Source: an uncultured Verrucomicrobiota bacterium
GTDB lineage: Bacteria > Verrucomicrobiota > Verrucomicrobiia > Limisphaerales > J093
Length of the DNA stretch: 56,562 nucleotides
Assembly: GCA_964396005.1 (NCBI GenBank)
Contig: CAYNCT010000004.1
Coordinates: forward strand, 1-56,562
Reading direction: 5' to 3'
Shown here: piece by piece, positions 22,339 through 54,999 of the stretch
Layout of the letters: every line of letters starts with the position of its first letter
Numbering within the stretch: the stretch's first letter is position 1
Translations under genes and position numbers: made by a program
Notes under the pieces: model-generated
The model's database searches: none
The model's input: only the letters and a program-made list of their open reading frames with translations
What the model was told of the DNA's origin: nothing

Positions 22339-23223
22339 GTGAGTGCTCCGACACCCTTGGCCATCATCCACGCCGGGAACCAGCGCCAGGCGATGGACTG
22401 GAGCCTCGTGCTCATCAGCCAGGACATCGAGGTCGTGATCGAAGAGCTGCCGGAGCACGGCTGGGTGCTGCTGGTGCCGCCGGCGGATCACGCCCGCGCC
22501 GCACGGGCCATTGCCCTCTACTGCCACGAGAACCGCCGCTGGGGCTGGCGCCAGACGCTCCGGCTGCCGGAGTTCACCTTCCATTGGGGCGTGGTGTTCT
22601 GGTGTCTCGGCGTCATTTTTCTCCACGGGTTGAGCGCCGGCTCGCTGGGGCGTCTGGTACTCGTCGGCGCCATGAACGATCAGGTGGCGACGACCGGGCA
22701 ATGGTGGCGGCTGTTCACCGCGCAATGCTTGCACGCGGACGTGGGCCATCTGGCGGCCAACCTGAGCTCGGGCTTCGTGCTCCTGGGGCTGGCGATGGCT
22801 CGTTTCGGGCCGGGACCGGTCATGCTGGGCATCCTGCTCGCCGGCGGGCTGGGCAACCTGGCCAGCCATTGGGTCCACGCGCACCGGTACGTCGGTCTGG
22901 GGGCGTCCGGCATGGTAATGGGCGCGCTGGGGATGCTCGCGGCCCACTTGGTCGGCGTGCTGCGACACCATCCCCGGGCGTGGCGGGTGGTGCTGGGCAG
23001 CTTCGCCGGCGGGGCCTTCCTGTTCATCTTCACCGGCCTCAATCCGGCGAGCGATGTCGTGGCCCATACCGGGGGATTTGTCGCGGGTCTGGCCGCGGGC
23101 GCTGCTCTGGCGTGGCTGCCGGAGCGGTGGTTGCAGGCGGACTGGTTTCGCCACGGCTGCGGGGCCTGCGCGCTGTTGGTGCTTGCCACGTCGTGGGGAC
23201 TGGCGCTATCCGGCTGGCCGTGA
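22339..23223 (+). CDS. Rhomboid family intramembrane serine protease with N-terminal soluble domain
   Basis: WWRLFTAQCLHADVGHLAAN, GASG, AHTGG. Only the C-terminal part of the 19744-23223 ORF is real. Start GTG 22339 or ATG 22393. Confidence 0.88.
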   Translation: MSAPTPLAIIHAGNQRQAMDWSLVLISQDIEVVIEELPEHGWVLLVPPADHARAARAIALYCHENRRWGWRQTLRLPEFTFHWGVVFWCLGVIFLHGLSAGSLGRLVLVGAMNDQVATTGQWWRLFTAQCLHADVGHLAANLSSGFVLLGLAMARFGPGPVMLGILLAGGLGNLASHWVHAHRYVGLGASGMVMGALGMLAAHLVGVLRHHPRAWRVVLGSFAGGAFLFIFTGLNPASDVVAHTGGFVAGLAAGAALAWLPERWLQADWFRHGCGACALLVLATSWGLALSGWP

Positions 23224-24272
23224 AAACGAATTTCGCACCTTGGCGGCCGGGGCTGTTGAGCGTGGCGCTGCTCCTCTGTCTGGCCGGGGCCGCGGCGACC
23301 CCGCGCGGAACCGAATTCAAGTCCTGGTCCAACTTTCGGTCCTGGCAGCGCAGCCTGGGCCCCAACGGAGAAACCGTGCTGACCTCGCCGGTCCTTCGGA
23401 CCGCCATCGCGTGGGACGAGTTGATCGCCTCGTGGAACGCCACGACGCCCGGCGGCACGGGACTGCGCATCGAGGCCCGGGCGCTGTATCCGGATCGCGA
23501 AACGAAGTGGTATCTCCTGGGACTCTGGTCGGAAGAGGGACGCCGATTCCCCCGGACCAGCGTGCGGAATCAGCAGGACGCCGACGGCGAGGTTGCGACG
23601 GACATCCTCCGCTTGACCCAATCGGCCCGACGGGTGCAGGTGCGGGTGGCGTTGGTCCCCAACGGCTGGGAGCAGCCCACGCTGCGTTACCTCGCGATTT
23701 CCCTCTGGTCACGGGCGGCCTCCCAACCTCAGCTCACCCCGAATCGCCGGGCGTGGGGAGTGACACTCGACGTGCCCAACCTGTTGCAGGGCGATTATCC
23801 GGGCGGCCAGGATTCCTGGTGCAGCCCAACCAGCACGGCCATGGTCCTCGCGTACTGGAGCCGCGAACGCAAGCGGCCCGACTGGCTGCGGTCGGTGCCG
23901 GAAGTGGCGGCGGGCGTGATGGATCCCGGCTGGCCGGGCACTGGCAACTGGTCGTTCAACGTCGCCTACGTGGGCGCGCTGCCCGGTTTGCGCGCGTCTG
24001 TCACCCGCTTCCCGGACGTCTCAGAACTGGAGGCTCACATCGCCCGCGGCGTGCCGGTGGTGGTTTCGCTGAACTACGACGTGCTGCGACAGAAGCCGCC
24101 CGGCCGCGACGCTGGCCACTTGATGGTATTGGTGGGGTTCACGGGAGCGGGCGACCCCATTCTCAACGATCCGGGCAGCCGCGAGCACCAGCGCCGCGCC
24201 TACGCGCGCCTGGACTTCATCAAGGCGTGGGATTACTCGCGCCGGACCGTGTACATCATCCGGCCGGAATGA
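23220..24272 (+). CDS. Secreted peptidase C39-like (papain-fold) protein
   Basis: Signal peptide MKTNFAPWRPGLLSVALLLCLAGAAA; QDSWCSPTS (Cys), GHLMVLVG (His), LNDPG (Asp). GTGA overlap with the rhomboid. Confidence 0.85.
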   Translation: MKTNFAPWRPGLLSVALLLCLAGAAATPRGTEFKSWSNFRSWQRSLGPNGETVLTSPVLRTAIAWDELIASWNATTPGGTGLRIEARALYPDRETKWYLLGLWSEEGRRFPRTSVRNQQDADGEVATDILRLTQSARRVQVRVALVPNGWEQPTLRYLAISLWSRAASQPQLTPNRRAWGVTLDVPNLLQGDYPGGQDSWCSPTSTAMVLAYWSRERKRPDWLRSVPEVAAGVMDPGWPGTGNWSFNVAYVGALPGLRASVTRFPDVSELEAHIARGVPVVVSLNYDVLRQKPPGRDAGHLMVLVGFTGAGDPILNDPGSREHQRRAYARLDFIKAWDYSRRTVYIIRPE

Positions 24273-25602: not shown

Positions 25603-25676
25603 TGGAGCGGGTGAAGGGAATCGAACCCTCGTCTCAGGCTTGGGAAGCCCACGTTCTACCATTGAACCACACCCGC
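25603..25676 (-). tRNA. tRNA-Gly(CCC), CCA encoded
   Basis: GCGGGTG TG GTTC AATGGTA GAAC G TGGGC TT CCC AA GCCTG AGAC GAGGG TTCGATT CCCTT CACCCGC T CCA folds into a full cloverleaf. Confidence 0.97.
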
Positions 25677-25794: not shown

Positions 25795-26769
25795 TCAGAA
25801 CAGCGGACTGACAAGAATGCCGATGATGCTCAGGGGCCCCTGGTCCTCGAGCGTCTCGGTGGCCTTGTCCACTTTTTGCAGCGTGAGCGTCGCGTTCTTC
25901 AGGAACGCGTCCTCATTCACCAGCGATCCCACCGTCCCGTGGCCGCGGTTGACCTTCTGCAGAATTTCCCGGAGGTTCACGACGGCTTCCGTGGCTTCGT
26001 CGTAAAGTTTGGGGTCGGTGGTCAGTCGGCCGAGGGTGCCCTGACCGGCGCGCACGCCTGCCACGATCGCTTTGCCATCCGCCACTACGGAGCGCACGTC
26101 CTCGGCGGTGGAATTGAGGTTGGTCACGGTGCTCAACGCGGACGCATACAGTTCGTCGCTCCGCACCAGCCGGCCAATGGTGCCCTGGCCCGAGGCAATC
26201 TGAGCGACCGTGGTGTCGGCGTTGGTGAGGATGTTGAGGATCAGCGGCTTGCCTTCGCGCACCAGGTCCGTGAGCGGCATCAGGATCTCGTCAATCTTCA
26301 CGTCGCTCAAATTGCCGGTGATCTTTTTGATGTCGCTGGCCACACCGTCGAGCTTGCTGATCAGTTCGTTGACGTCCTGCGGGTCCACGGTCTGCAGCAG
26401 AGCGCCATCCTTGAGCAGTTCGCCGCGGGACGTGCCGAAATCCACCGCCACGTAGTTCTGGCCGAGCAGCCCGCTGAACTTGATGGTGGCGATGCTGTCG
26501 GTCCGGATCCGCGCGCTGCGATCCGTGATCTTCAGGTGTACCACCAGGCGGTCGTCGTCGAACTGGATGTCGCGCACCCGGCCCACCTCCTTGCCGGCCA
26601 TCTTGACCGGATCCCCCGGTTTGAGCTCCTGGACGTTGCGGAAGCGCGCCTGGAGTTGCAGGCCCCGCCGGAACAGGTCGGCCCCGCCAACCCATTCCAC
26701 AAGGATGGCGGCCGCAATCAGGGCCAGCGCGAAGAAGATGCCCAGCTTGGTTTCAAGGGTGTTTTTCAT
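25795..26769 (-). CDS. mlaD: MCE/MlaD family protein with long helical C-terminal extension
   Basis: TM anchor; MCE domain (ELKPGDPVKMAGKEVGRV, SGLLGQNYVAV); three G-x-G-T-[ILV]-G-x-L repeats in the helical tail. Confidence 0.9.
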   Translation of the reverse strand: MKNTLETKLGIFFALALIAAAILVEWVGGADLFRRGLQLQARFRNVQELKPGDPVKMAGKEVGRVRDIQFDDDRLVVHLKITDRSARIRTDSIATIKFSGLLGQNYVAVDFGTSRGELLKDGALLQTVDPQDVNELISKLDGVASDIKKITGNLSDVKIDEILMPLTDLVREGKPLILNILTNADTTVAQIASGQGTIGRLVRSDELYASALSTVTNLNSTAEDVRSVVADGKAIVAGVRAGQGTLGRLTTDPKLYDEATEAVVNLREILQKVNRGHGTVGSLVNEDAFLKNATLTLQKVDKATETLEDQGPLSIIGILVSPLF

Positions 26770-27535
26770 TTCGGTCAGCGGGTTGGAACTGGAAATTGGC
26801 GCTCAGAAATTCTTGCAGGAGTGGATGGGTGGTCTGCCGGATCTCGGCCGGCGTCCCCAGGGCGACCATTTGTCCGTCACTCATCAAGGCGATGCGGTCG
26901 GCGATGCCGAAGGCCAGATCGCGATCGTGCGTGACCACGACGCTGGTCACCCGCATGCGGCGGTTGAGCTTGAGGATCTCCTCGCCGACCGTGACCGCCA
27001 TGAGCGGGTCCAGTTCGCTGGTGGGCTCGTCGTACAGGATCAACTGGGGCTCGCTCACCAGAGCGCGGGCAATCGAAGCCCGCTTCTTCATGCCCCCGGA
27101 AAGCTCGCCCGGCATCTTGTCAGCGGCGTCGCGCAAACCGACCAACGCCAGCTTTTCGTCCACGACCCGGGCGATCGCGTCGGGCGGCCTGAGCCGGTGC
27201 TCGCTCAAGTACAAGCCGACGTTTTCACCCACTGTCAGCGAATTGAGCAGGGCCCCGGACTGGAAGACCATCGCCATGCGGTGCCGGTCCAGGACGCCGT
27301 CGGCGTGAATCGGCTCGCCTTCGATGAGAATCTCGCCGGCGTCGGGCGTGAGCAGTCCGATCAGGTGCTTGAGCAGGACCGTTTTACCGCAACCGCTGGG
27401 GCCCATGATGACGAAGAGCTCGCCGCGACGGACTTCGAAATCAATGCCCTTGAGCACCTCCTGTCCACCCAGGGTCTTGCGCAGGCCGCGGACACGGATG
27501 CTGACGCCATCGGTTGGGAGGGGGGCGGCGCTCAT
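26753..27535 (-). CDS. mlaF: MlaF/Mkl-type ABC ATPase
   Basis: GPSGCGKT, FQSGALLNS, LSGGMKKR, LYDEPT, VTHD. Start moved to ATG 27535. Confidence 0.93.
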   Translation of the reverse strand: MSAAPLPTDGVSIRVRGLRKTLGGQEVLKGIDFEVRRGELFVIMGPSGCGKTVLLKHLIGLLTPDAGEILIEGEPIHADGVLDRHRMAMVFQSGALLNSLTVGENVGLYLSEHRLRPPDAIARVVDEKLALVGLRDAADKMPGELSGGMKKRASIARALVSEPQLILYDEPTSELDPLMAVTVGEEILKLNRRMRVTSVVVTHDRDLAFGIADRIALMSDGQMVALGTPAEIRQTTHPLLQEFLSANFQFQPADRNEKHP

Positions 27536-28278
27536 CAGTCGAGGTGCATCAACACCCGGGTCAGGAAGTAGTCCAGAACGAGGATTAGGATGATCGAGTT
27601 CACGACCGCCTTGGTCACCGAGCGGCCGATGCCGCGCGGGCCGCCAATGGTGGTCAGGCCCTGCTGGCAGGAGACGATCCCAATCACGACGGCAAAGACC
27701 AAGCTCTTGGCCAGGCCGTTGATCAGGTCCATGACGCCGATGCCGCCGCGCAGGCTGTTGAAATACGCCTCCATCGAGAGCGAGATTTGGTAGTTGGCCG
27801 CCGCCACCAGCGCGCCCCCGATCCAGCCCACCAGCACCGAGAAGAGCACCAAAATCGGCAGCGCCACACAAATGGCCAGCAGGCGGGGAAGCACCAGAAA
27901 GCGGACAGGACTGATGTTCATCGTCCTCAGCGCATCAATTTCCTGGTACACGGTCATGGAGCCGATCTCGGCCGCCATCGCCGATCCGATGCGGCCGGCG
28001 ATCAACACCGCCATCATCACCGGGGCGAGTTCCCGGCACATCGAAAGCCCGACAATCTGCCCCAAAAAGCTCACCAGCCCCCGCTCCGCCAGCGTGGGGC
28101 CGGTCTGCAACGCCAGCACGCCACCGATGAACAGCGAGAGAATGCACGCCATCAACAGGCTGGCGTTGCCAATCTCGAAAAGCTGCTCGGCCACCTTGCG
28201 GCGCTGATGCCAGGCCTGGTCCAGCGACCGCAAGGTCCGCCACAGCAACATCAGCATTTGGCCCAGGTTCTCGAACAT
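27535..28278 (-). CDS. mlaE: MlaE family ABC permease
   Basis: RELAPV, GRIGSAMAAEIGSM...QEIDAL..M, GPRGIGRSVTKAVV. Start ATG 28278. Confidence 0.93.
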   Translation of the reverse strand: MFENLGQMLMLLWRTLRSLDQAWHQRRKVAEQLFEIGNASLLMACILSLFIGGVLALQTGPTLAERGLVSFLGQIVGLSMCRELAPVMMAVLIAGRIGSAMAAEIGSMTVYQEIDALRTMNISPVRFLVLPRLLAICVALPILVLFSVLVGWIGGALVAAANYQISLSMEAYFNSLRGGIGVMDLINGLAKSLVFAVVIGIVSCQQGLTTIGGPRGIGRSVTKAVVNSIILILVLDYFLTRVLMHLD

Positions 28279-28307
28279 GCTCGTGGAATGGCTTTTCCCT
28301 CCGGCGC

Positions 28308-29849
28308 TCACGACCGGCCCGGCCGGGACTGGGCCCGGCCTTTCCCCGGCGGGATGAATCCCACGCGCCACCGGGCACCATTCGGGCCAGACTCATACTT
28401 CAGCAATCCGAACAGCAGCGAGCACTTTCTAGCCTGCCCGGCCGACTCGGCGCGGTAGAGATTCCACAGCAAGGACTGGCTGGCCGCGCCGGTCGCCAGG
28501 TTTCGTTCCGAGCGCCAGACCGACCAGAGCGGCGACCAGGAGCGCCTCACCCCGTCGCTTTCCGGCAGGAACGGTTCCAGCAGGGCCAGCACCTGCAGCC
28601 GCTCGCGGCCCTCGTAGTCCCGGCGGGCAGTGAACAGGGGCCACAAATCCGTCCGTCGCCGCTCGCGCCCGTCGTGCTTGTCCCGCTGCCGCACGTCGGT
28701 GTAGAGGAACAAGAGAACGGAAGTCCGATCCAGGGCCACGCGTTGGTTCTCGCGGTGTTTCGTTCGGAACAGCGGCCAGAGCACCAGCGTGTTCGAGTCG
28801 TCCCGATCCCGCAGCGAACTGAACAGGGGGAACACGCGGTCCAACCGCCGGTCGGGGCCGCGACCGAACGCAACCAGTGGCCAGGCCACGCCGGTCTCGC
28901 GGTAGTCGCGCGTATGGTCCGCGAGGATCGAGACGCCCAACGGCCAGAGGTAACTGTGACGCTCCTGTTGCGGCGATTGTTGGCGCGCCCACAACGGCAA
29001 GAAGGCATCGAATGTGCCCTGATTCGTCGTGCCCACGTCCAGACGCTGCCGCCAGTAAACGGGAAACAGCGCGAACTGTTTCTCATAGCCTCCCACCAGC
29101 TCCACGCTGCCGGCCCCGTCAGTGCGCGTGAGGGCCTCGCGTCGTTCGGTGCCGTAAAAAGGCCAGACCTGCCAGCCGCTGGCCCCGCCATCCCGGACAT
29201 GCACCAGGGGCGCCAGGTAATTGCGCGTGTGGACATCACGCTTCCAGGTCTCGACGTACAACGGCCACATGACCCATCGGACTTCATCGCGGAACAACCG
29301 GTTTTTCACCCGGCCGTAAATCGGCAGCAGGCCGGTGTAGTTCAGGGCGGGGTCTTGGGCCCGCTGCTGGAAATAGAAGGGAAACAGCGTGAAGCGCAGC
29401 ACGTCGTCACCCGCCTGGTTGGGACCGCCCCGGATCGCAAACAATTGCACGATCTGGAAGCTCCGCTGCTCGCCATACCGATGATACGTCACCAGTGGGT
29501 AGAACACATGGATCGCGGTGCCGTCCGCGTCGTACTCCCAGTGCTGCGAAAAGAACGGGGCGAAGCTGACCGTGGCGGCCCGGGCCTGGATCGCGGTCAA
29601 ACCGGGCGGCGGCGCCAGGGGGTCGGCCACCCCGGCCTCGAGCGCAGACCGGCGGTCCCAGATCGTTTCTCGGGCCCAGAACGGGCCAAACCCCTCGGCG
29701 CGTTCGCCGGGCTCAAGCGTCAGCCGGAAACGCTGCCACAGCGGACCGGCCGCGACGTAGCCGCCTTCCTCGGCACCTGCGGAAAACGCCAGCGCGGTCC
29801 ACGCGAGGGCAAGGACGAGCGGTTTGATACTGGAAGGAAGCTCCGACAT
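28308..29849 (-). CDS. Secreted aromatic-Pro repeat protein of unknown function, first gene of the mla operon
   Basis: Signal peptide followed by about 20 repeats of a hydrophobic-P-[LF]-aromatic motif (LFPFY, LLPIY, MWPLY, VWPFY, LFPVY, LWPLG, AWPLV, VFPLF, LWPLF). Ends 29 nt before mlaE. Confidence 0.8.
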   Translation of the reverse strand: MSELPSSIKPLVLALAWTALAFSAGAEEGGYVAAGPLWQRFRLTLEPGERAEGFGPFWARETIWDRRSALEAGVADPLAPPPGLTAIQARAATVSFAPFFSQHWEYDADGTAIHVFYPLVTYHRYGEQRSFQIVQLFAIRGGPNQAGDDVLRFTLFPFYFQQRAQDPALNYTGLLPIYGRVKNRLFRDEVRWVMWPLYVETWKRDVHTRNYLAPLVHVRDGGASGWQVWPFYGTERREALTRTDGAGSVELVGGYEKQFALFPVYWRQRLDVGTTNQGTFDAFLPLWARQQSPQQERHSYLWPLGVSILADHTRDYRETGVAWPLVAFGRGPDRRLDRVFPLFSSLRDRDDSNTLVLWPLFRTKHRENQRVALDRTSVLLFLYTDVRQRDKHDGRERRRTDLWPLFTARRDYEGRERLQVLALLEPFLPESDGVRRSWSPLWSVWRSERNLATGAASQSLLWNLYRAESAGQARKCSLLFGLLKYESGPNGARWRVGFIPPGKGRAQSRPGRS

Positions 29850-29927
29850 GGACCCGCGGGCGGGCGGCATCGTAGGTGCGAGCCTCCCGGGGTCAAGCTT
29901 CACGCCCACCGGCCGCTGAAGCGGTCG

Positions 29928-30344
29928 TTACGACGCAGGCCGCGCGGCGGCCTGTTTTAGCTCGCGCTCGCAGAGGCGCAGGTTTACCGCAAACGCCACC
30001 TGCCGGGCCAGCAGCCGGTTGCGCCGCTCCACTTTCATCCGCACCTGACACCCGTTGGCACCCGGCACTCCCGCCAGCCACTTCATGCTCCGCACCGTCA
30101 GGAGCAGGCGCGTCACAAACCAGTTGCTCTGCAGCTTGAGGTCCACCACGTCGGCCCAGGGAATGGTCACGTCTTGGACGCCCCCTTTGAGCATGTTCAG
30201 AAAACCGTCGCGTCCCTGAAACTCGAGCACCAACCCCTCCGCGGTCACTCGCAACGCGCCGTGGCAGTCGGCCATCCCGGCATAAGCGTCGAGCAACTGG
30301 ACCGGCACCGACTGCTCGGACTGATTGGCGATCGCGTCGCTCAT
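29928..30344 (-). CDS. Small hypothetical protein, possibly bacterial PH-like domain
   Basis: GALRVTAEGLVLEF...VTIPWADVVDLKLQSNWFVTRLLL resembles PH-like beta proteins. Start ATG 30344. Confidence 0.6.
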   Translation of the reverse strand: MSDAIANQSEQSVPVQLLDAYAGMADCHGALRVTAEGLVLEFQGRDGFLNMLKGGVQDVTIPWADVVDLKLQSNWFVTRLLLTVRSMKWLAGVPGANGCQVRMKVERRNRLLARQVAFAVNLRLCERELKQAAARPAS

Positions 30345-30508
30345 GCGCCGGAGGATGCGGGCGCCCCGGGCGAAGCTCAAGCGATGCCTGCACTTCGCCG
30401 GAGCCCGGGCAACATCCGCTTGGCCGCCGGCAGCCAACGGGAGCACCGGCCACCAAACCGGCAGGCGCACCAACGGCCTTTTCGCCGCCATCCCGAGGGT
30501 TTGCCGAC

Positions 30509-30967
30509 TTACGGCCCCAGCCGCAGCCGGTAAAAGGCTGCGGCGGCCCCGCGGGGAAGCGTCACCCGCAAGGTGTCGCCCACCGGCGCTGGGTTGACGG
30601 GAACCGCCTGCCAGGCCGCTGGGTCGCCCAGCGAACCCGCCTCCTCCACCACCACTGCCCCCAGCGCTGCCGGCCAGGCGAGCACAAGGTCAGACCCCGC
30701 CAGACCCGCTGACAACATGGGCGGCACGGGCGGCAGCGTGGCCCACGGCCCCGGCCAGAAGCCGGTCTGCAGCACGTAGCCCCCGCCCACCGCAGTCCCG
30801 GCCTCCGGCTGGCCCACGGTGATGTCGGCCGCGTAGCCGCCGCCGCTGATGGTTCCGCCACCGCCATCAATCGTTATCCATTGCAGCTCGTACGCCCGAG
30901 CGTCGGAAATGGCCGCGCTCAGCAGGGCCGCGAGGACCGCCAGTTGAATGGTACGCATGGTTCTCAT
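30509..30967 (-). CDS. Small secreted protein with Gly-rich hairpin and FYRL-type C-terminal domain
   Basis: Signal peptide; WITIDGGGGTISGGGYAADITVGQPEAG...GGGYVLQTGFW; C-terminus LVLAWP...W...FYRLRLGP. ATGA overlap with the upstream gene. Confidence 0.8.
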   Translation of the reverse strand: MRTMRTIQLAVLAALLSAAISDARAYELQWITIDGGGGTISGGGYAADITVGQPEAGTAVGGGYVLQTGFWPGPWATLPPVPPMLSAGLAGSDLVLAWPAALGAVVVEEAGSLGDPAAWQAVPVNPAPVGDTLRVTLPRGAAAAFYRLRLGP

Positions 30968-32799
30968 GGCGTGGGCGGGAAAAAGCTGCCCCACATCGTT
31001 TCCGCCGTATGCACTCGCGCGACCCATCGCACGGAGTCCGGGGTCGCCGCGCTGTGGACCTCAATTTGAAGGGAATCCCCAACCGCCTGCAGTCGCACCT
31101 GCCAGGCCGGATCGTCCTCACCCAGTTCTACCACCGAGGGCGTGCCGACAAAGGTAGCCGGGCCGCCCCCGACACGTTTGATGACGCCACGCGCGGCGTA
31201 ACCCCCGGAGATTTGAAAGTTAGGGGGCAGGCCCTGACTCCGGCCGACGACCAGAAGATCGAACGTAACCGTCTGATCCCCGCCCAAACGCAGCGGCGCG
31301 CCCAAACCATCCAGCGAAAGGACAGTTCCCGAGGCACCCGGTCCGGTCTGCCCGCGCAGTACATAGACCGAGGTCTGGGCATCGCCGAGGTCCCCGAAGT
31401 TCCCGGCTGATTGAGCCATCTGCCCATGCTGGGTGGCGAGGGCCTGTGTTCCGCCGGGAATGATCGAGTACGCACCGAGCGCCTGGTTCGCCGCACCACC
31501 CGCCACTGTGGAGTTGGGCCCGTGAGCCCAATTTCCCCCGCCTCCGCCCACGGTGGCCCCGAAAGACTGCGCCCAGTTTTCGGTCCCGCCGCTCACGGTG
31601 GCATAGTCCAAATGCGCCCGGTTCCCAGCACCGCCGCTCACCGTGGTGCCCGGACCAAAGGCCTCGTTGCCCTGCCCGCCGCCGACCGTCGCCGCGTCCA
31701 CGAGCGCGCGGTTGGAATCACCGCCCCCGACGGTAGCCGCAATGCCATTGGCCAGGTTGGCAGATCCGCCGCCGACCACGGCATAGGCGCCTTCTGCCTG
31801 GTTGCTCGCGCCACCGGCCACCGTGGTCGCGGTGGCCCGAGCGAGGTTTTGGACTCCGCCGCTCACCACGGCGTACCCGTTGGTCGCCGCGTTACTCGCG
31901 CCGCCGGCCACCACCGCGGCCCCGCCGCTCACGTAGTTGCTCAACCCGCCGCCGATGAAGGCATGGTTCGCGTTGCTGATCACATTGGGGTTGGCGGCTG
32001 CACCACCGCCCGCGATTACGGCGCCCGCGGAGCCGAGGATGGCGTTTGCCTCATGACCTCCGATCAGGTTGGGCCCGACCGCACGCGGCTCAATGAGCAG
32101 GGCCCGTTGGTTGAACACGCGCACTTCCAGCGGCTGGGCATCCGTGGTGCCGAGAAAGTTGGTCGGCCCCGTGCCCGCGTTGCCGCTCAGCAACCACGCC
32201 GGCGGACTGACCGCGAACTTACCGCCGCTCAGCGAAACGAGGCCGCTGCCCGTTAAAGGCAGCGCCAACGCCGAGGCCGAAAGCACGGCCCCGGGGGCCA
32301 GGCTGGCCGCCAAAGCTGCGTGAATGGCTGTGGGCGCTGCGGTGATCTGGATCGCCGGCCCCAGGGTGACGAAGCCCGGCGGCGGGGCGGCCAGGCCGAC
32401 GCGGCCGGCTCCATGCGCCGCCGCAGTCGTTTCGCCCCCCGGCGACGGCCGGACCGAAATCTCGAGCCATCGCTCCGCGCTGCTGAAGCCGTCCGGGCCG
32501 GTGTAAAAAACGTCGAAGAACGGCTCCCACCGGAAGTTCACCGGCACCGTGAACAGACCGTCGCGCACGGCCACGTGCGGCTCGATGACCTCGGCCAGTT
32601 TCGCCCCGTCGGGGCCGCCCGTGAGGAGGAAGTAAAAATCGTGCGGTCCATTGACCGCCCGCCCCTCGTGGGTCAGCCGCCCCTGCACGGTCACCGGAAT
32701 TTCTTGGGCCGCGAGGCTCGCGACCGTCGTCAGAGTCAGCAGGCCGTGGAGCAACCGGCGCCCGGTCCGGCTGGTCTTGAAGTGCATGGTCGTTTTCAT
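30964..32799 (-). CDS. Secreted tail-fibre/adhesin-like protein with 15-residue beta-roll repeats
   Basis: Signal peptide; N-domain VQGRL...FTVPVNF...WLEISVR; about 12 tandem 15-aa repeats (e.g. NGYAVVSGGVQNLAR, GIAATVGGGDSNRAL); C-domain ending VRWVARVHTAE. Confidence 0.8.
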   Translation of the reverse strand: MKTTMHFKTSRTGRRLLHGLLTLTTVASLAAQEIPVTVQGRLTHEGRAVNGPHDFYFLLTGGPDGAKLAEVIEPHVAVRDGLFTVPVNFRWEPFFDVFYTGPDGFSSAERWLEISVRPSPGGETTAAAHGAGRVGLAAPPPGFVTLGPAIQITAAPTAIHAALAASLAPGAVLSASALALPLTGSGLVSLSGGKFAVSPPAWLLSGNAGTGPTNFLGTTDAQPLEVRVFNQRALLIEPRAVGPNLIGGHEANAILGSAGAVIAGGGAAANPNVISNANHAFIGGGLSNYVSGGAAVVAGGASNAATNGYAVVSGGVQNLARATATTVAGGASNQAEGAYAVVGGGSANLANGIAATVGGGDSNRALVDAATVGGGQGNEAFGPGTTVSGGAGNRAHLDYATVSGGTENWAQSFGATVGGGGGNWAHGPNSTVAGGAANQALGAYSIIPGGTQALATQHGQMAQSAGNFGDLGDAQTSVYVLRGQTGPGASGTVLSLDGLGAPLRLGGDQTVTFDLLVVGRSQGLPPNFQISGGYAARGVIKRVGGGPATFVGTPSVVELGEDDPAWQVRLQAVGDSLQIEVHSAATPDSVRWVARVHTAETMWGSFFPPTP

Positions 32800-32895
32800 G
32801 GTTTGGTTCTGTTTTTCGGTTTGGTCGCCCCCGCCCGACTCCGAGCAAGGGAAAAGCCTCGGCTTCACGGCTAACACGCTCGTTCAGCAGAGGAA

Positions 32896-49266: not shown

Positions 49267-50805
49267 TCAGCGAACCCGCCGGACGGTCAACCGCACGCTG
49301 CCGCGATTGTTGTCGTAGAAGTTCCAAGCATCGTTGGCGAAGCCATACAGGTAGCCGGGGCGCCGAATGGTGCGGGTCAGGCCGTTCTTGATGGGCAGGA
49401 TTTCACCGGGAAGTTCCCGGCCCTCGTCGTCCTCCCCGCCATTGGCCACCAGCCCCACCAACGCAAACCAGGGCAGTTCCTCAACCCGGCGGGTGCCGCG
49501 GAAGTCTGCCTGGGCGTTGGCGGTGAGTTTCTTAAACGCGCTTTCCACCCGGCCCCACAGGCTGCCGGCGAGGTGCGCGAGTTCGCCCGCGTGGAATTTG
49601 CCGTCCCGCGTGCCGCCGGGACCGCACTTGACGTCGCGGTCCATCCACTCGCCTACGGCGGTGAACTCGAACTCCTCATCGGCGCCGAGGTAAAGCCCGG
49701 TTTCGTTCCAGGGCTCGGCGGCGTAAATCGAGAACGCCCGTTGCTCGCCGGGGGCCAGCCGCAGCGAGACGTGATACGGCGCCTGGGTGATCGGCGGGTT
49801 CTCAAGGCGGCGCAGGACGGACTCGTGAAGCTGCCGGGGGCAATTGCTGGCGACCAGCTCCGGCCAGTTGCGCGGCTGCGCCCGCAGCGCCTGGTAGAGC
49901 CCGGTCCGCGAGTCGTGCAAGACGCCCTGGGGATCGGGTTTCACCTGCTGGCGCATCTGCGGGTGCAACCCAAGCTGCCGGGCTTCCGCCTGGTCCATCA
50001 TCCACGCGAGGGCGCCGTCGGACAGGCCCGTCTCGGGGTAACCGCCACCCACATCCGAATGCACCCCGGGAAACCACACCTGCTGAATGTCCGGACGGTT
50101 TTCGATCCCGGTCCACAAGGTGGGCGCGAAACTCAAGCGGCGCTCGTCCAGCGCCACCGCGTGGCAGCCGTACCGCACCCGGTCATTGAGCTTCGTGTCG
50201 TGAAAAGCGTAGCGCCGCGTGTCATCGAGCAGGTTCAAGATCGCCAGTTCATCGGGAATGCCCAGCGCGCCCACCGTGTCCCAGACACCGAGGAAATGCA
50301 CCGGAATCCGGAAGTCGCCGGGAGCAACTTCATGAAACTCCCACCCGCCGGCCCACGCGGAGCGGTCCTTCCGCTCGCGATAGCCTCGCTGGTACGCCCG
50401 CTCGACGCGCGTCCACACCTCGGGGTCGTCCAGTCCCGCCAGTTTGAGCAAACCACAGGTCCGGGACGCCAGCATGCCGGCGACGCTGCGGACAGTGTAG
50501 GCGCCGCGACTGAAGCCGAACAAATACACGCGATCCTCGGGCTCGTAGCGTTCCGCGAGCCACTTGTAGGCGCTCATGACGTTGCGGCTCAATCCGATGC
50601 CGGTCCCGCCTCCCGCCAGTTTGTCCCACCAGTTGCTGCCGGTGCCCACTCCCGGGTGGTAGTACTTTTCCTGCGGAACGCCGTCCGCGGCCTTGTCGGT
50701 CACGCAATTGAACAGCCGCACGACGTTCGTCGGCGAAGGCACGCCGTGTTCCGATTGATCCGGGGTGTTCCAGGTTCCGTCGCAGCAGACAACGAGGTTT
50801 TTCAT
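49267..50805 (-). CDS. DUF2235 (Tle1-like alpha/beta hydrolase) fused to a C-terminal LecA/PA-IL-like domain
   Basis: VVCCDGTWN, FGFSRGA (GxSxG), GVWDTVGALG, HAVALDERR, WFPGVHSDVGGG. C-terminal GPGG...FALVGLV...FANDAWNFYDNNRGSVRLTV. Confidence 0.88.
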   Translation of the reverse strand: MKNLVVCCDGTWNTPDQSEHGVPSPTNVVRLFNCVTDKAADGVPQEKYYHPGVGTGSNWWDKLAGGGTGIGLSRNVMSAYKWLAERYEPEDRVYLFGFSRGAYTVRSVAGMLASRTCGLLKLAGLDDPEVWTRVERAYQRGYRERKDRSAWAGGWEFHEVAPGDFRIPVHFLGVWDTVGALGIPDELAILNLLDDTRRYAFHDTKLNDRVRYGCHAVALDERRLSFAPTLWTGIENRPDIQQVWFPGVHSDVGGGYPETGLSDGALAWMMDQAEARQLGLHPQMRQQVKPDPQGVLHDSRTGLYQALRAQPRNWPELVASNCPRQLHESVLRRLENPPITQAPYHVSLRLAPGEQRAFSIYAAEPWNETGLYLGADEEFEFTAVGEWMDRDVKCGPGGTRDGKFHAGELAHLAGSLWGRVESAFKKLTANAQADFRGTRRVEELPWFALVGLVANGGEDDEGRELPGEILPIKNGLTRTIRRPGYLYGFANDAWNFYDNNRGSVRLTVRRVR

Positions 50806-51513: not shown

Positions 51514-54500
51514 ATGAAAACCCTGAAAACCCGTCTTGGTCTCATCGGGGGCGTCGTTGCGGTGGTGGCGACGCTTACCCTCGCACGCGCCGCCGAACGT
51601 TGGGAGCCGGTAGCCGGTGGCGTGCCCGGCTGGGTCTTGGACACACTGGCCGTCACCTTTGAGCACGCCGCGGATGGCACCCGGGCCCGGTTTTCCGTGA
51701 CCATCCCCAATCCGTGCCATCGGCTGACCTTCGGCGAGCCCCTGCGCGACGGCCGGCAGGTCATCGTGCCGTGCGGCCTGGAAGTCCTGTTAGGGCTGGC
51801 CTGTCCCCAGGTATTGTCCACGCAAACCGGCCAGCTCGATCTCGGACCGGTCGAGCCGGGTGCAGGCGAGCTGGTGATCCGCGCCGACGGCGGCGGCTTG
51901 GTCCGATTCCCGTTCGACGTGCCGGCGCGTGCCCCGGGCGCCACGCCCGAGGCGCTGCCGGTAATCTCGGCGGTGCTGGTCGAAGAGCGCGAGGTGATCG
52001 TCACCGTGGAAGCTCCGGCCGGGGTGAGGCGTGTGACGTTGGAGGGACGCTCCCGCCTCGGGGCCGGTGCGTGGGTGCCACGCGCCGTGGAACGGCTGCC
52101 GGGCAGTGGCGGTACGGTGACCTTCCGGATCGCGAAATCCGAGACGGTGGAAATGCTGCGGGTGCGGGGGGACGCCACCGAGGCTCTGCCATCCCGCCAC
52201 TACGAGGGCCGGTCGGAATTCCAAGGTGAGGCGATTGCCGGTACGGCGGCCAACCCGCCGGCGGACGCCTGGCGCAATTTCGATGGCATCGCCGCGCCGG
52301 AGGCTGGCGGTGGCGGAAGTCGCCCGGTGGTGGAGTCGGACATCTGGGTCGTGCGCGGCGACCGGCTGTATTTCTTCAACCAGTATCGTGGTCTGCAAGT
52401 GGTGGACTTAACGCAGCCGGATCGCCCGGTCCTCTCCGGGGCGCTGCAGATCCCCGCCGCCGGCGAGCAGATGTACCTGCTGGGCGACCAGCACGCGGTC
52501 CTGCTCGCCCGGGCCGGCTGCGATGGCAGCGCGGACCCCGGCAGCCAGGCGCTGATCGTGAACGTGGCGGGCGGGGCGCCGGTGATCGTGAAATCGCTGC
52601 CGGTACCGGGATACATTCAAGAAAGCCGGCTGGTGGGTTCGGCCCTTTACGTGGCGTCGCAGACCTACCGCGTCGTCCCACTGCCACCGGGAAGGCCGGG
52701 CCAACCGCCCGGGCAGCAGTGGGAATACGGCACCACGGTGACGGCATTCGACCTGAGCGATCCGACCGCGCCGGTGGCCAGGGATTCCCTGTGGTTTCCG
52801 GGCTACGGCAACGTCGTGGCCGCCACGGATCGCTTCCTGTTCATTGGCCTCCAGGTCCCGACCGACTGGTGGCAGAGCGAGGTGCGACTCCTTGACATCA
52901 GCTCTCCCGACGGCGTGATGAAACCCACCGCCACGGTCCGCCCCGCCGGGCGCGTGGACGACAAGTTCAAGCTCAACCTCGACGGCGACGTGTTCACCGT
53001 CATCTCGCACGTCTGGCGTTGGGAGGACCGCGACGAAACGGCCAGCGTGCTTGAGACGTTCTCCCTGGCCGATCCGGCTGCGCCGCGCAAGCTGGGGCAA
53101 ATCCGCGTCGGCGAGGGCGAAGCCCTCTTTGCCACCCGGTTCGACGGCGACCGCGCCTACATTGTGACCTTCGAGCGAATTGATCCGTTGTGGATCGTGG
53201 ACCTGCGCGACCCGACCCAGCCGCGGCTGCACGGCGAGCTCGAAGTGCCCGGCTGGTCCACGTACATCCAGCCTTTGGGCGATCGCTTGGTGACCGTCGG
53301 GGTCGGCGGCACCAACAACACTCAGGTCGAGGTGTCGCTCTTCGACGTGCGCGACCCGGCCAAGCCCGCGCTGTTGTCCAAGGTGCCGCTGGGCGAAAAC
53401 CACTCGTGGAGCGAGGCCAACTACGACGAAAAGGCGTTCACCGTGCTGCCCGAGGCCGGCCTGATTCTGGTACCCTACCAGGGCTACGCTCCCGGTGGCC
53501 ATACCTCGCGCGTCCAGTTGATTGACCTCGCGGAAGACACACTGCAGGCCCGGGGCGTGATCGAGCACGCCATGCAGGCGCGGCGGGCCACCCTGCGCGG
53601 CGACCGCATCCTCTCCTTGTCCGGCCGTGAACTGTTGACCGTCAACGCCGCAGACCGCGACCGCCCCCAGGTGACCAGCAACCTCGAGCTGGCGTGGCCG
53701 GTGGATGACGTGTTCGCCGTAGGCAATCATCTGGTCCTGATCGAGCGCGGCAGCGCCTGGTGGGGCGGAAACACGCCCGGCGCCCGGGTGGTCAGCGCGA
53801 CCGATCCCAATCGGCTCCTCGGCAAGCTGGCACTGCCGCTCGCGCTGCCGATCACCGCCAGCACCCGCATCGGCGATTTCCTTTACGTGGCGCAGTTCGA
53901 TCCGGCCGTCGCGGGCGTGGAAGCCGGGAAAGAAGGCGAGCCACCCCCGCCGCCGAACCTGTACCTCACCGTGATCGAGCTGGCGGCGCTGCCCGAGCTA
54001 CGGGTGGCCGGGACCACCGCGACGCGGGTCGAAGCCGCCGGCTGGCTGGGCAACCTCAAAGCCTTTGTGCCGCGTCCGGAACTATTGGTCCTGACCGGCG
54101 GGGCTTCGGGCTGGTGGCGCGGACCGTGGGGAGTGGACTTCCTGCCGGGCGGCCGTTGGCTGCCGTGGTGGTGGAGCGGCGCCGCCGGCGGACAGTTCTT
54201 CGCTTTCGATGTCACCGACCCGCGAGCGCCGCGCTTCGCTTCCTTCACCCAGTTGAGCACCGACAACACCGCCTGGGGCTTCGGCCCGACGTTCCTGGTG
54301 AACGGCTTGTTTTACCTCAGTCACCAGAGGTCCGAGTTTGTTCCGGACGCGCAGGCGCAGCCCCCCAGGGTGCCCGACCTGACGCGCGGCCGCTGGGTCA
54401 CCCGCCACTTCCTGAGCGTGGTGGATTTTGCCGACCCGGCCAATCCCACCCTCCGCCCGCCGGTCAACCTGCCCGGCCAACTGGCCGCCGTCACGCACGC

Positions 54501-54999
54501 CGGCGAGGTCCTTTACACCACCGGCTACCACTGGAACGAAAAAGGCGAGACCGACTGGACGCAATTCCTCGATGTCCTCGCCTACGATGGCGTCGAGGCC
54601 TCGCTGGTCACGTCGCAGCGCATAGGCGACGGCTGGACCGGCCAGCTCGCCACCGTCGCGGATCACCTGATCCTGGGACGCCACGACTCCGCGAAACCAT
54701 CCACGCGCCTTGAGACGTGGCGCCTCTCCGAGCAAGGCGTCCTGCTTCAGGTCGGATTAACGGAAACGCCCGGCTACCTCGCTCAACTGACCCGGCTCGA
54801 AGAACTCCTACTCGCCTCCGCCGGGTCGGCGGTGACGGTCTGGGACACCACCCAGCCAACCAACCTTCGCCAAGTGGGGCAAGGTACCGGCGACGGCTGC
54901 GTGTATCCAAGCTTGGACAACGGCCTCGCTCGCCAGGGCACCACGCTCTGGCTGCCGCAAGGCGACTACGGGGTCGTTGAATTGAAGCTGACGCCGTAA
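51514..54999 (+). CDS. Large secreted protein with beta-propeller domain (Beta_propel-like)
   Basis: Signal peptide; VVESDIWVVRGDRLY, GEALFATRFDGDRAYIVTFERIDPLWIVDL, GELEVPGWSTYIQP. Confidence 0.88.
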   Translation: MKTLKTRLGLIGGVVAVVATLTLARAAERWEPVAGGVPGWVLDTLAVTFEHAADGTRARFSVTIPNPCHRLTFGEPLRDGRQVIVPCGLEVLLGLACPQVLSTQTGQLDLGPVEPGAGELVIRADGGGLVRFPFDVPARAPGATPEALPVISAVLVEEREVIVTVEAPAGVRRVTLEGRSRLGAGAWVPRAVERLPGSGGTVTFRIAKSETVEMLRVRGDATEALPSRHYEGRSEFQGEAIAGTAANPPADAWRNFDGIAAPEAGGGGSRPVVESDIWVVRGDRLYFFNQYRGLQVVDLTQPDRPVLSGALQIPAAGEQMYLLGDQHAVLLARAGCDGSADPGSQALIVNVAGGAPVIVKSLPVPGYIQESRLVGSALYVASQTYRVVPLPPGRPGQPPGQQWEYGTTVTAFDLSDPTAPVARDSLWFPGYGNVVAATDRFLFIGLQVPTDWWQSEVRLLDISSPDGVMKPTATVRPAGRVDDKFKLNLDGDVFTVISHVWRWEDRDETASVLETFSLADPAAPRKLGQIRVGEGEALFATRFDGDRAYIVTFERIDPLWIVDLRDPTQPRLHGELEVPGWSTYIQPLGDRLVTVGVGGTNNTQVEVSLFDVRDPAKPALLSKVPLGENHSWSEANYDEKAFTVLPEAGLILVPYQGYAPGGHTSRVQLIDLAEDTLQARGVIEHAMQARRATLRGDRILSLSGRELLTVNAADRDRPQVTSNLELAWPVDDVFAVGNHLVLIERGSAWWGGNTPGARVVSATDPNRLLGKLALPLALPITASTRIGDFLYVAQFDPAVAGVEAGKEGEPPPPPNLYLTVIELAALPELRVAGTTATRVEAAGWLGNLKAFVPRPELLVLTGGASGWWRGPWGVDFLPGGRWLPWWWSGAAGGQFFAFDVTDPRAPRFASFTQLSTDNTAWGFGPTFLVNGLFYLSHQRSEFVPDAQAQPPRVPDLTRGRWVTRHFLSVVDFADPANPTLRPPVNLPGQLAAVTHAGEVLYTTGYHWNEKGETDWTQFLDVLAYDGVEASLVTSQRIGDGWTGQLATVADHLILGRHDSAKPSTRLETWRLSEQGVLLQVGLTETPGYLAQLTRLEELLLASAGSAVTVWDTTQPTNLRQVGQGTGDGCVYPSLDNGLARQGTTLWLPQGDYGVVELKLTP

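Follow-up and report, generated by a model that had tools for sequence, protein, structure and literature searches.

For most diderm bacteria, the route by which phospholipids get across the periplasm is still to be settled, and the four-gene locus described here poses it in a concrete form: what stands on the outer-membrane side of an MCE/Mla lipid transporter that comes without MlaA, MlaB and MlaC? The locus lies on a 56,562-nt stretch of DNA from an uncultured Verrucomicrobiota bacterium of the Limisphaerales (GenBank assembly GCA_964396005.1, contig CAYNCT010000004.1), the whole of which is called the window hereafter. In it, genes for an MlaE permease, an MlaF-type ATPase and a long MlaD follow a gene for a secreted protein, predicted to be all-beta, which we call the repeat protein. 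Together they make up a transporter of the MCE/Mla kind whose fourth component has not been described before, and this system turned out to be more general than could be known from the sequence-only reading of the window that preceded this work. The survey of Grasekamp et al. (2023), whose Supplementary Data 1 scores 1083 genomes, provides the frame for this finding. There, MlaA, MlaB and MlaC are described as largely proteobacterial, and of the MlaD proteins around 85% are 'long' and only around 10% possess an outer-membrane barrel of their own. The survey states that no MlaD beta-barrel at all occurs in Planctomycetes-Verrucomicrobia-Chlamydiae (PVC) bacteria, whose MlaD is scored as long and barrel-less, and 'as yet unidentified proteins' are proposed as a possible need for such an MlaD (PMC10665443). 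It makes no mention of the repeat gene.

The four genes of the module are co-oriented on the minus strand of the window, which has a GC content of 67% (Table 1). The sequence-only reading had proposed an operon of repeat protein, mlaE, mlaF and mlaD, and recomputing its spacing gave the same values: the repeat gene and mlaE are separated by 29 nt, 1 nt is shared by the mlaE stop and the start codon of mlaF, and mlaF and mlaD overlap by 17 nt. Using NCBIfam models, MlaE scored 231.5 bits against TIGR00056 (cut-off 212.2), and MlaD scored 93 bits against the OM_asym_MlaD equivalog model (cut-off 135). The product of mlaF reached 182 bits with the MlaF equivalog model, under its cut-off of 441, and is therefore described as MlaF-like and not as an equivalog.

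Table 1. Coordinates of the features of the repeat protein-mlaEFD module and its immediate flanks in the window.
Feature	Position	Strand	Description
Repeat-protein gene	28308-29849	(-)	513 aa from ATG, first in module; secreted, predicted all-beta, uncharacterized family
Signal peptide, repeat protein	29772..29849	(-)	around aa 1-26, ...ALAFSAGA/EE; read from sequence; AlphaFold2 helix aa 9-23
Beta-hairpin repeat region (predicted)	28359..29744	(-)	aa 36-497; around 44 short strands
mlaE permease	27535-28278	(-)	247 aa; PF02405 3.4e-70, full-length coverage; TIGR00056 above cut-off
mlaF-type ABC ATPase	26753-27535	(-)	260 aa; PF00005 (ABC_tran) 2e-34
Long mlaD / MCE gene	25795-26769	(-)	324 aa; transmembrane helix, MCE domain, helical tail, conserved tip
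MCE domain of MlaD	26434..26664	(-)	aa 36-112; PF02470 1.6e-20; AlphaFold2 pLDDT 80-90
Helical tail of MlaD	25849..26373	(-)	aa 133-307; helices broken at three G-x-G-T-phi-G-x-L-phi-x-D-x-x-L-Y motifs (AlphaFold2)
Hydrophobic C-terminal tip of MlaD	25798..25839	(-)	GPLSIIGILVSPLF-COOH; conserved
Candidate sigma-70-like promoter	29869..29896	(-)	TTGACC-16 nt-TACGAT; consensus match only
tRNA-Gly (anticodon CCC)	25603-25676	(-)	around 120 nt downstream of mlaD stop, same strand

The evidence that ties the repeat protein to the transporter is its genomic linkage. A scan with one genome per species returned at least 539 confirmed relatives, and the loci analyzed were the best 80, nearly all from Verrucomicrobiota of the Limisphaerales/Pedosphaera type, plus later look-ups. 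With repeat-protein identities ranging from 24 to 80%, mlaE comes directly after the repeat gene in 81/81 loci having at least 900 nt of downstream sequence, and where at least 2.8 kb of it is available, the complete E-F-D series is found in 71 of 72 loci. Homologs were thus found next to MCE genes, as the sequence-only reading had asked to be verified, and its view of the repeat protein as an MCE-system partner gains a dedicated and deeply conserved linkage to mlaEFD in a setting devoid of MlaA/B/C. The same module is present in divergent members, including low-GC contigs (L083, L089), two other contigs (L084, L086) and the complete genome of the cultured Lacunisphaera limnophila (Opitutae), and a single MCE gene is found in the window operon and in all related loci. 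In Thermosulfurimonas dismutans (Thermodesulfobacteriota; L088 3394-7401, LWLG01000013.1) the order is permuted to mlaE-mlaF-mlaD-repeat, which argues for selection on adjacency rather than an inherited order; genes that stay neighbors in different phyla even though their order has changed are likely to work as a unit, and this is good evidence that they do. Within Verrucomicrobiota the module is conserved, and it extends at least to Thermodesulfobacteriota. Other proteins of the repeat family are labeled Desulfuromonadales and Candidatus Methylomirabilis, although labels of metagenome-assembled genomes (MAGs) are not fully reliable.

The neighborhoods also offer another candidate partner. A co-oriented gene of around 914 aa encoding an MMPL protein (PF03176, with a weak sterol-sensing domain) ends around 255 nt upstream of the repeat gene in 51/82 related loci, one example being the MMPL/RND gene at 5065-7809 of L013, with 50 other related loci like it. 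The repeat protein could then mainly serve this HpnN-like lipid exporter, its linkage to mlaEFD being secondary, an explanation that we consider highly improbable. No MMPL gene is adjacent in the window, its closest relatives, Lacunisphaera, Thermosulfurimonas or the low-GC loci, all of which have mlaEFD, and, besides the uninterrupted adjacency of mlaE, the present data contain no member with MMPL that lacks mlaEFD. MMPL was dropped as primary partner given that the module lacks this neighbor in Lacunisphaera, Thermosulfurimonas and the low-GC loci. Where both are found, the MMPL gene and the repeat-mlaEFD module suggest a larger lipid-export island in Limisphaerales.

A Pfam scan of 36 other open reading frames (ORFs) of the window, a few of which were left without any match, detected no MlaA (PF04333), MlaC (PF05494) or STAS domain, in agreement with the earlier statement that mlaA, mlaB and mlaC are missing from it. 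Related genomes tabulated in the literature also lack MlaA and MlaC. In the Verrucomicrobia rows consulted, which include Lacunisphaera limnophila, MlaA, MlaB and MlaC are all scored 0 and no MlaD barrel is recorded, and the Thermodesulfobacteria rows consulted read likewise; by contrast, MlaA and MlaC are scored as present in Kiritimatiella (PMC10665443). The repeat protein probably replaces these missing MlaA/MlaC parts.

The MlaD encoded by the window belongs to a kind already known, the long needle type; what is new is its constant companion. In the AlphaFold2 monomer an N-terminal helix (residues 6-27) precedes a confidently predicted MCE domain, and the tail is wholly helical at low confidence, as expected for an obligate oligomer modeled as a single chain. 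The G-x-G-T-[ILV]-G-x-L motifs lie at residues 194, 242 and 276, so that the three repeats spaced 48 and 34 aa apart and the hydrophobic end (...SIIGILVSPLF) of the earlier description came out unchanged on recomputing. In its extended form (G-x-G-T-phi-G-x-L-phi-x-D-x-x-L-Y), the motif is likewise present three times in the ortholog from Lacunisphaera, and the orthologs from Thermosulfurimonas and the low-GC lineage have four copies. Besides PF02470, precomputed annotations place PF28544 (Helical_needle) in 120/120 of the closest orthologs. A local Pfam scan of the window MlaD gave no PF28544 even at E<=10, though an ortholog at 91% identity has it, and the local library probably predates this model. 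Among solved structures the best relative is Mce1B of Mycobacterium smegmatis (8fed_B), to which the ortholog profile aligned over positions 7-254, that is, into the helical repeats, and further matches in the PDB were to MlaD, Mce1 and LetB structures. These orthologs, the Mce1B match and the predicted helices together place the MlaD with the long helical tail noticed earlier in the Mce1-like needle type. In addition, chain I of PDB entry 13hr, a 312-aa 'Mce/MlaD domain-containing protein' of similar length, matches the profile over positions 44-253 and may be a solved long MlaD.

At the C-terminus of MlaD, the final 16 residues hardly vary among more than 70 orthologs (consensus E-D-Q-G-P-L-S-V-L-G-x5-L-F-COOH), with D309, G311 and L323 invariant in both ortholog alignments, and Q310 and P312 invariant and F324 at 90% or more in one of them; a recognizable form of the tip is kept in Opitutae and in the low-GC lineage. 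The MlaD of Thermosulfurimonas dismutans (358 aa) has four RGEGTLGKLL-type motifs and ends in ...ILGTIAGAAMQ, not in ...LF. In the single-chain AlphaFold2 model the 14-residue hydrophobic C-terminus of the window protein is a low-confidence helix. Judging from its conservation, the tip could be a portal strand, a docking peptide, or both. A Veillonella-type C-terminal barrel (around 150 aa) is absent from this MlaD, which ends 17 residues past the last long helix and shows no beta structure in the model after residue 128.

The companion itself belongs to an unannotated and undescribed family with no fold match in the PDB. Neither Pfam, even at E<=10, nor NCBIfam gave any match for the window protein, a scan of 62 divergent members revealed no recurrent family (2/62 match PF03640, Lipoprotein_15), the profile of 120 homologs gave 0 matches at E<=10 among PDB sequences, and a full-text literature search found no description of the family. 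Its relatives, all annotated as hypothetical proteins, are 450-550 aa long with an N-terminal signal-like segment, and no domain fusions occur among the 150 matches listed, the family proteins being standalone. The family exceeds 1300 members in a word-indexed database, and an exhaustive profile search gave 1845 clusters (50% identity), with E-values below 1e-30 for 606. Its members are basic (93% have a net positive charge, with a median of +10) and rich in tryptophan (3.7% of residues); the window protein contains 12% Arg and has a net charge of +14. A lipobox follows the signal peptide in around 9% of a 282-member set, as judged by a regular-expression heuristic, and the window protein has no lipobox cysteine.

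The sequence-only reading had described this first gene as secreted and built from about 20 hydrophobic-P repeats, in agreement with the signal peptide that can be read at its N-terminus and with our counts. The strict motif [hydrophobic]-P-[LFIVMW]-[aromatic/aliphatic] occurs 14 times, against 1.5 +/- 1.2 (maximum 7) in 5000 shuffled sequences, and including degenerate copies there are around 22 repeats, around 20 aa apart. Conservation of the protein is highest in its C-terminal third (aa 400-500). Thirteen prolines are invariant across the 120 homologs, and among the 62 divergent members the invariant columns are 12 prolines and nothing else, so that a scaffold or binding role is likelier than catalysis; an enzymatic role was dropped on this proline-only invariance.

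Using the 120-sequence alignment, AlphaFold2 produced a confident model of the repeat protein (mean predicted local distance difference test score, pLDDT, of 91.9; predicted TM-score, pTM, of 0.81), which is nearly all beta, with around 44 strands of 4-8 residues each and tight turns on both sides, giving substance to the hairpin-like spacing that had been noticed in the letters. The connections between strands strictly alternate, a hydrophobic x-P-x link (WPL, FPF, LPI) being followed by a polar G/D/N turn, and the conserved hydrophobic and aromatic residues are concentrated within around 4 residues of each proline. One edge of the array would carry a continuous hydrophobic ridge of W/F-P-L/F loops, which may be exposed or form the core. 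Co-variation, assessed by mean-field direct coupling analysis (DCA) on 282 sequences (effective number of sequences, Meff, around 212), supports sequential hairpin pairing over both kinds of connection; neither the couplings that join repeat k to repeat k+2 nor those that join the N-terminal to the C-terminal part rose above background, given multiple testing and repeat-register artefacts.

A Foldseek search against the PDB gave no global match, with TM-scores on the query not exceeding 0.18. Locally, the closest resemblance (probabilities of 0.84-1.0) was to the TCP10 G-box, MORN/junctophilin, OspA and teneurin/Rhs YD shells, tandem propellers also being among them. The first four are likewise made of around 20-aa repeats arranged as consecutive antiparallel hairpins; they differ from the repeat protein in that no sequence motif is shared and no Pfam match links them, the W/F-P-L/F signature being distinct to the repeat protein. 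Filing the family as a beta-propeller, YD-shell, MORN or LptD protein was dropped, as the similarities are local and the TM-scores do not exceed the value given above.

An all-beta protein with a signal peptide, whose strands alternate hydrophobic and polar residues, may well be imagined as an integral outer-membrane beta-barrel, inserted by BAM, the machinery for beta-barrel assembly, and capping the MlaD tunnel, and the sequence-only reading had taken it for an outer-membrane partner in such a capping position. A few distant members end in a hydrophobic/aromatic strand, as ...VFWYPLF in Thermosulfurimonas, and Foldseek returned weak matches to LptD and Tom40. We nevertheless regard a barrel as very unlikely. 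The strands span merely 4-8 residues, compared with around 9 or more for transmembrane strands, and no side of the sheet is uniformly hydrophobic: the more hydrophobic one is 49% hydrophobic and around 30% charged or polar, and the opposite one 17% hydrophobic. The arginine content and positive charge of the window protein point in the same direction, as does the existence of lipoprotein members. The last residue is F, W or Y in just 5% of the 282 members, and a mostly polar tail (median of 18 residues) follows the last strand, arguing that there is no BAM-type C-terminal signal. The LptD and Tom40 matches have probabilities of 0.09-0.28 and TM-scores of around 0.1, and the repeat protein has no Pfam match to OstA/LptD or DUF3769, the LptD similarity in particular reaching a probability of 0.09 and a TM-score of 0.10. 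Given its short mixed-polarity strands, the basic family, the lack of a beta-signal and the lipidated members, the proposal of an integral outer-membrane protein is not supported, and the repeat protein looks soluble or peripheral. A soluble or periplasmic protein had been named beforehand as an outcome at odds with an outer-membrane partner; it has come about in part, leaving the functional idea in place, as a periplasmic, membrane-proximal partner comparable to PqiC still fits it. Most probably, then, it does not cap the tunnel as a barrel and serves as an accessory subunit close to a membrane.

Being secreted and of a soluble type of polarity, with conserved hydrophobic and aromatic residues lined up in a long stripe to which acyl chains could bind, and given that MlaC is absent, the repeat protein might also be a soluble periplasmic lipid carrier, an MlaC analogue ferrying lipid from one to the other of the outer membrane and the MlaD ring. 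We deem this quite unlikely. The roughly 9% of the family with a predicted lipid anchor are incompatible with shuttling and fit a membrane-surface protein facing the periplasm, the protein is, at around 490 aa, over twice the size of MlaC, and its cognate MlaD has a needle-type tail of around 175 residues with a conserved tip, an architecture that replaces the shuttle in Mce1, PqiB and LetB.

Taking this evidence together, we propose that the four genes encode one MCE/Mla-type envelope lipid-transport machine that dispenses with MlaA, MlaB and MlaC, and that the repeat protein is its distal accessory subunit and receives the MlaD tip, a reading for and against which the scales stand about even. 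In this machine MlaE2F2 would act as the inner-membrane ABC engine. MlaD, anchored in the inner membrane, would by analogy with solved MCE proteins form a hexameric MCE ring extended by an Mce1-like helical needle with a hydrophobic lumen, which would end in the conserved hydrophobic tip (...EDQGPLSxxGxxxxxLF-COOH). The repeat protein, basic and rich in tryptophan and proline, would be exported to the periplasm as a dedicated distal subunit and lie on, or close to, the outer membrane's periplasmic face, held there by its basic surface and its W/F-P-L/F ridge; the window copy would be free after cleavage of the signal peptide and the protein lipid-anchored in some lineages. By receiving the MlaD tip it would couple the needle lumen to the outer-membrane lipid leaflet, and its functional counterparts elsewhere would be MlaA/MlaC, PqiC on PqiB, Brucella Mpc or the C-terminal MlaD barrel of Veillonella.

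Several points weigh against this proposal. The MMPL gene that accompanies 51/82 loci makes another partner conceivable. In one locus (L058, 8001-13500), the lone exception among the 72, unrelated genes come after the repeat gene and mlaE, with neither mlaF nor mlaD; a rearrangement or a chimeric MAG contig may lie behind this. Co-variation with the repeat protein could hardly show in the MlaD tip, given how conserved it is. Finally, neither a lipid anchor nor a recognizable membrane-targeting signal is present in the window copy, for which reason its placement at the outer membrane is something that we infer.

Several known systems resemble the proposed arrangement. The minimal MlaEFD system of the Veillonella parvula type likewise consists of an MlaE-MlaF-MlaD operon without MlaA/B/C and a long alpha-helical MlaD, whose helical extension has been proposed to bridge the envelope; its MlaD ends in its own C-terminal 10-stranded outer-membrane barrel (PMC10665443), whereas the window encodes a 14-residue hydrophobic tip and a separate repeat protein. 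The canonical proteobacterial Mla system (MlaA-OmpC/F, MlaC, MlaFEDB) shares the homologous core of MlaE, MlaF and MCE-domain MlaD and differs in the length of MlaD (183 aa versus 324 aa here, including the helical tail) and in having no repeat protein. The Mce1 needle comprises eight helical repeats separated by kinks, with one C-terminal strand per subunit forming a six-stranded portal (PMC9882608), and the kinked repeats and hydrophobic C-terminus of the window MlaD fit the plan of this complex (8FED), its best solved match. Mce1, however, is a heterohexamer of six paralogs, compared with the one MlaD gene of the window locus, and the accessory proteins that go with it (LucB, Mam/Mas) belong to the inner membrane and are unrelated; Mce1 has no known beta-repeat partner.

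Parallels to a separate partner at the needle tip are PqiABC and Brucella Mpc with their PqiC-like outer-membrane lipoproteins, which, like the system proposed here, join a periplasm-spanning MCE needle to a partner that has its own gene, is associated with the outer membrane, faces the periplasm and tethers or stabilizes the needle tip (PMC10897342, PMC12436622, PMC13631591); Mpc combines Mla and Pqi homologs and has been proposed to bridge both membranes (PMC12436622). PqiC is a lipoprotein of around 190 aa that forms an octameric toroid, whereas the repeat protein has around 490 aa, is made of hairpin repeats and is mostly not lipidated, and no likeness to PqiC was found in Pfam (E<=10), in the top-50 Foldseek matches listed or in the PDB sequence matches of the repeat protein.

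The parallel with PqiC also bears on a role for the repeat protein that is linked to the transporter and lies outside the conduit, such as helping the MlaD needle to assemble or to stay stable, acting as a regulator, or providing an anchor to peptidoglycan or to some other layer of the envelope. Conserved adjacency shows functional coupling only, and PqiC has been reported to stabilize rather than intimately gate PqiB (PMC10897342). Such a role seems unlikely to us, as a 1:1 linkage over at least two phyla, in permuted order and with the 29-nt spacing, resembles that of a core subunit more than that of a regulator, and no known peptidoglycan-binding or regulatory domain was detected in Pfam.

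Going further than a distal accessory subunit, the repeat protein could represent a new class of lipid-transport component, an amphipathic hairpin array whose W/F-P-L/F ridge would bind lipid or the outer membrane's inner leaflet and which would dock the tip of a homohexameric MlaD needle, giving a two-protein trans-envelope conduit. This more specific picture is put forward tentatively, as an attractive but doubtful one. If true, it would supply the missing outer-membrane-side element for barrel-less long MlaD proteins in Verrucomicrobiota, Thermodesulfobacteriota and other non-proteobacterial diderms. In any case, a fourth gene that invariably accompanies mlaEFD in two phyla or more makes a concrete candidate for the 'unidentified proteins' of the survey, and even if it were merely a stabilizing accessory, an unannotated family of around 1800 clusters would join the MCE toolkit. 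Its occurrence in cultured, genome-sequenced hosts (Lacunisphaera limnophila, Oleiharenicola lentus and Thermosulfurimonas dismutans) makes the hypothesis directly testable.

With regard to the flanks of the module, the promoter candidate sits in the 78-nt spacer 5' of the repeat gene, where one site was found against 0.4 expected, and no intrinsic terminator-like site was detected between the mlaD stop and the tRNA-Gly gene. Directly upstream of the repeat gene lies an ORF of 187 aa (29928-30491, minus strand) without Pfam match, whose conservation is limited to the three closest relatives (identity of 72-75%) and which may be a lineage-specific addition to the operon. Upstream of the operon, at 30509-32877 on the minus strand, there are two overlapping ORFs of 637 and 172 aa without Pfam match, the larger having an N-terminal hydrophobic signal-like segment and a Gly/Ala/Asn-rich composition with many GG-x-x-N-type repeats. 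Elsewhere in the window, a 512-aa protein (49267-50805, minus strand) carries a type VI secretion system (T6SS) Tle1-like phospholipase catalytic domain (PF09994, 4e-82), no T6SS genes being noticed in the window, and, on the plus strand, 23220-24272 codes for a Peptidase_C39-like protein (PF13529) whose N-terminus is hydrophobic, and 51562-54999 for a 1145-aa protein with a Beta_propel domain (PF09826).

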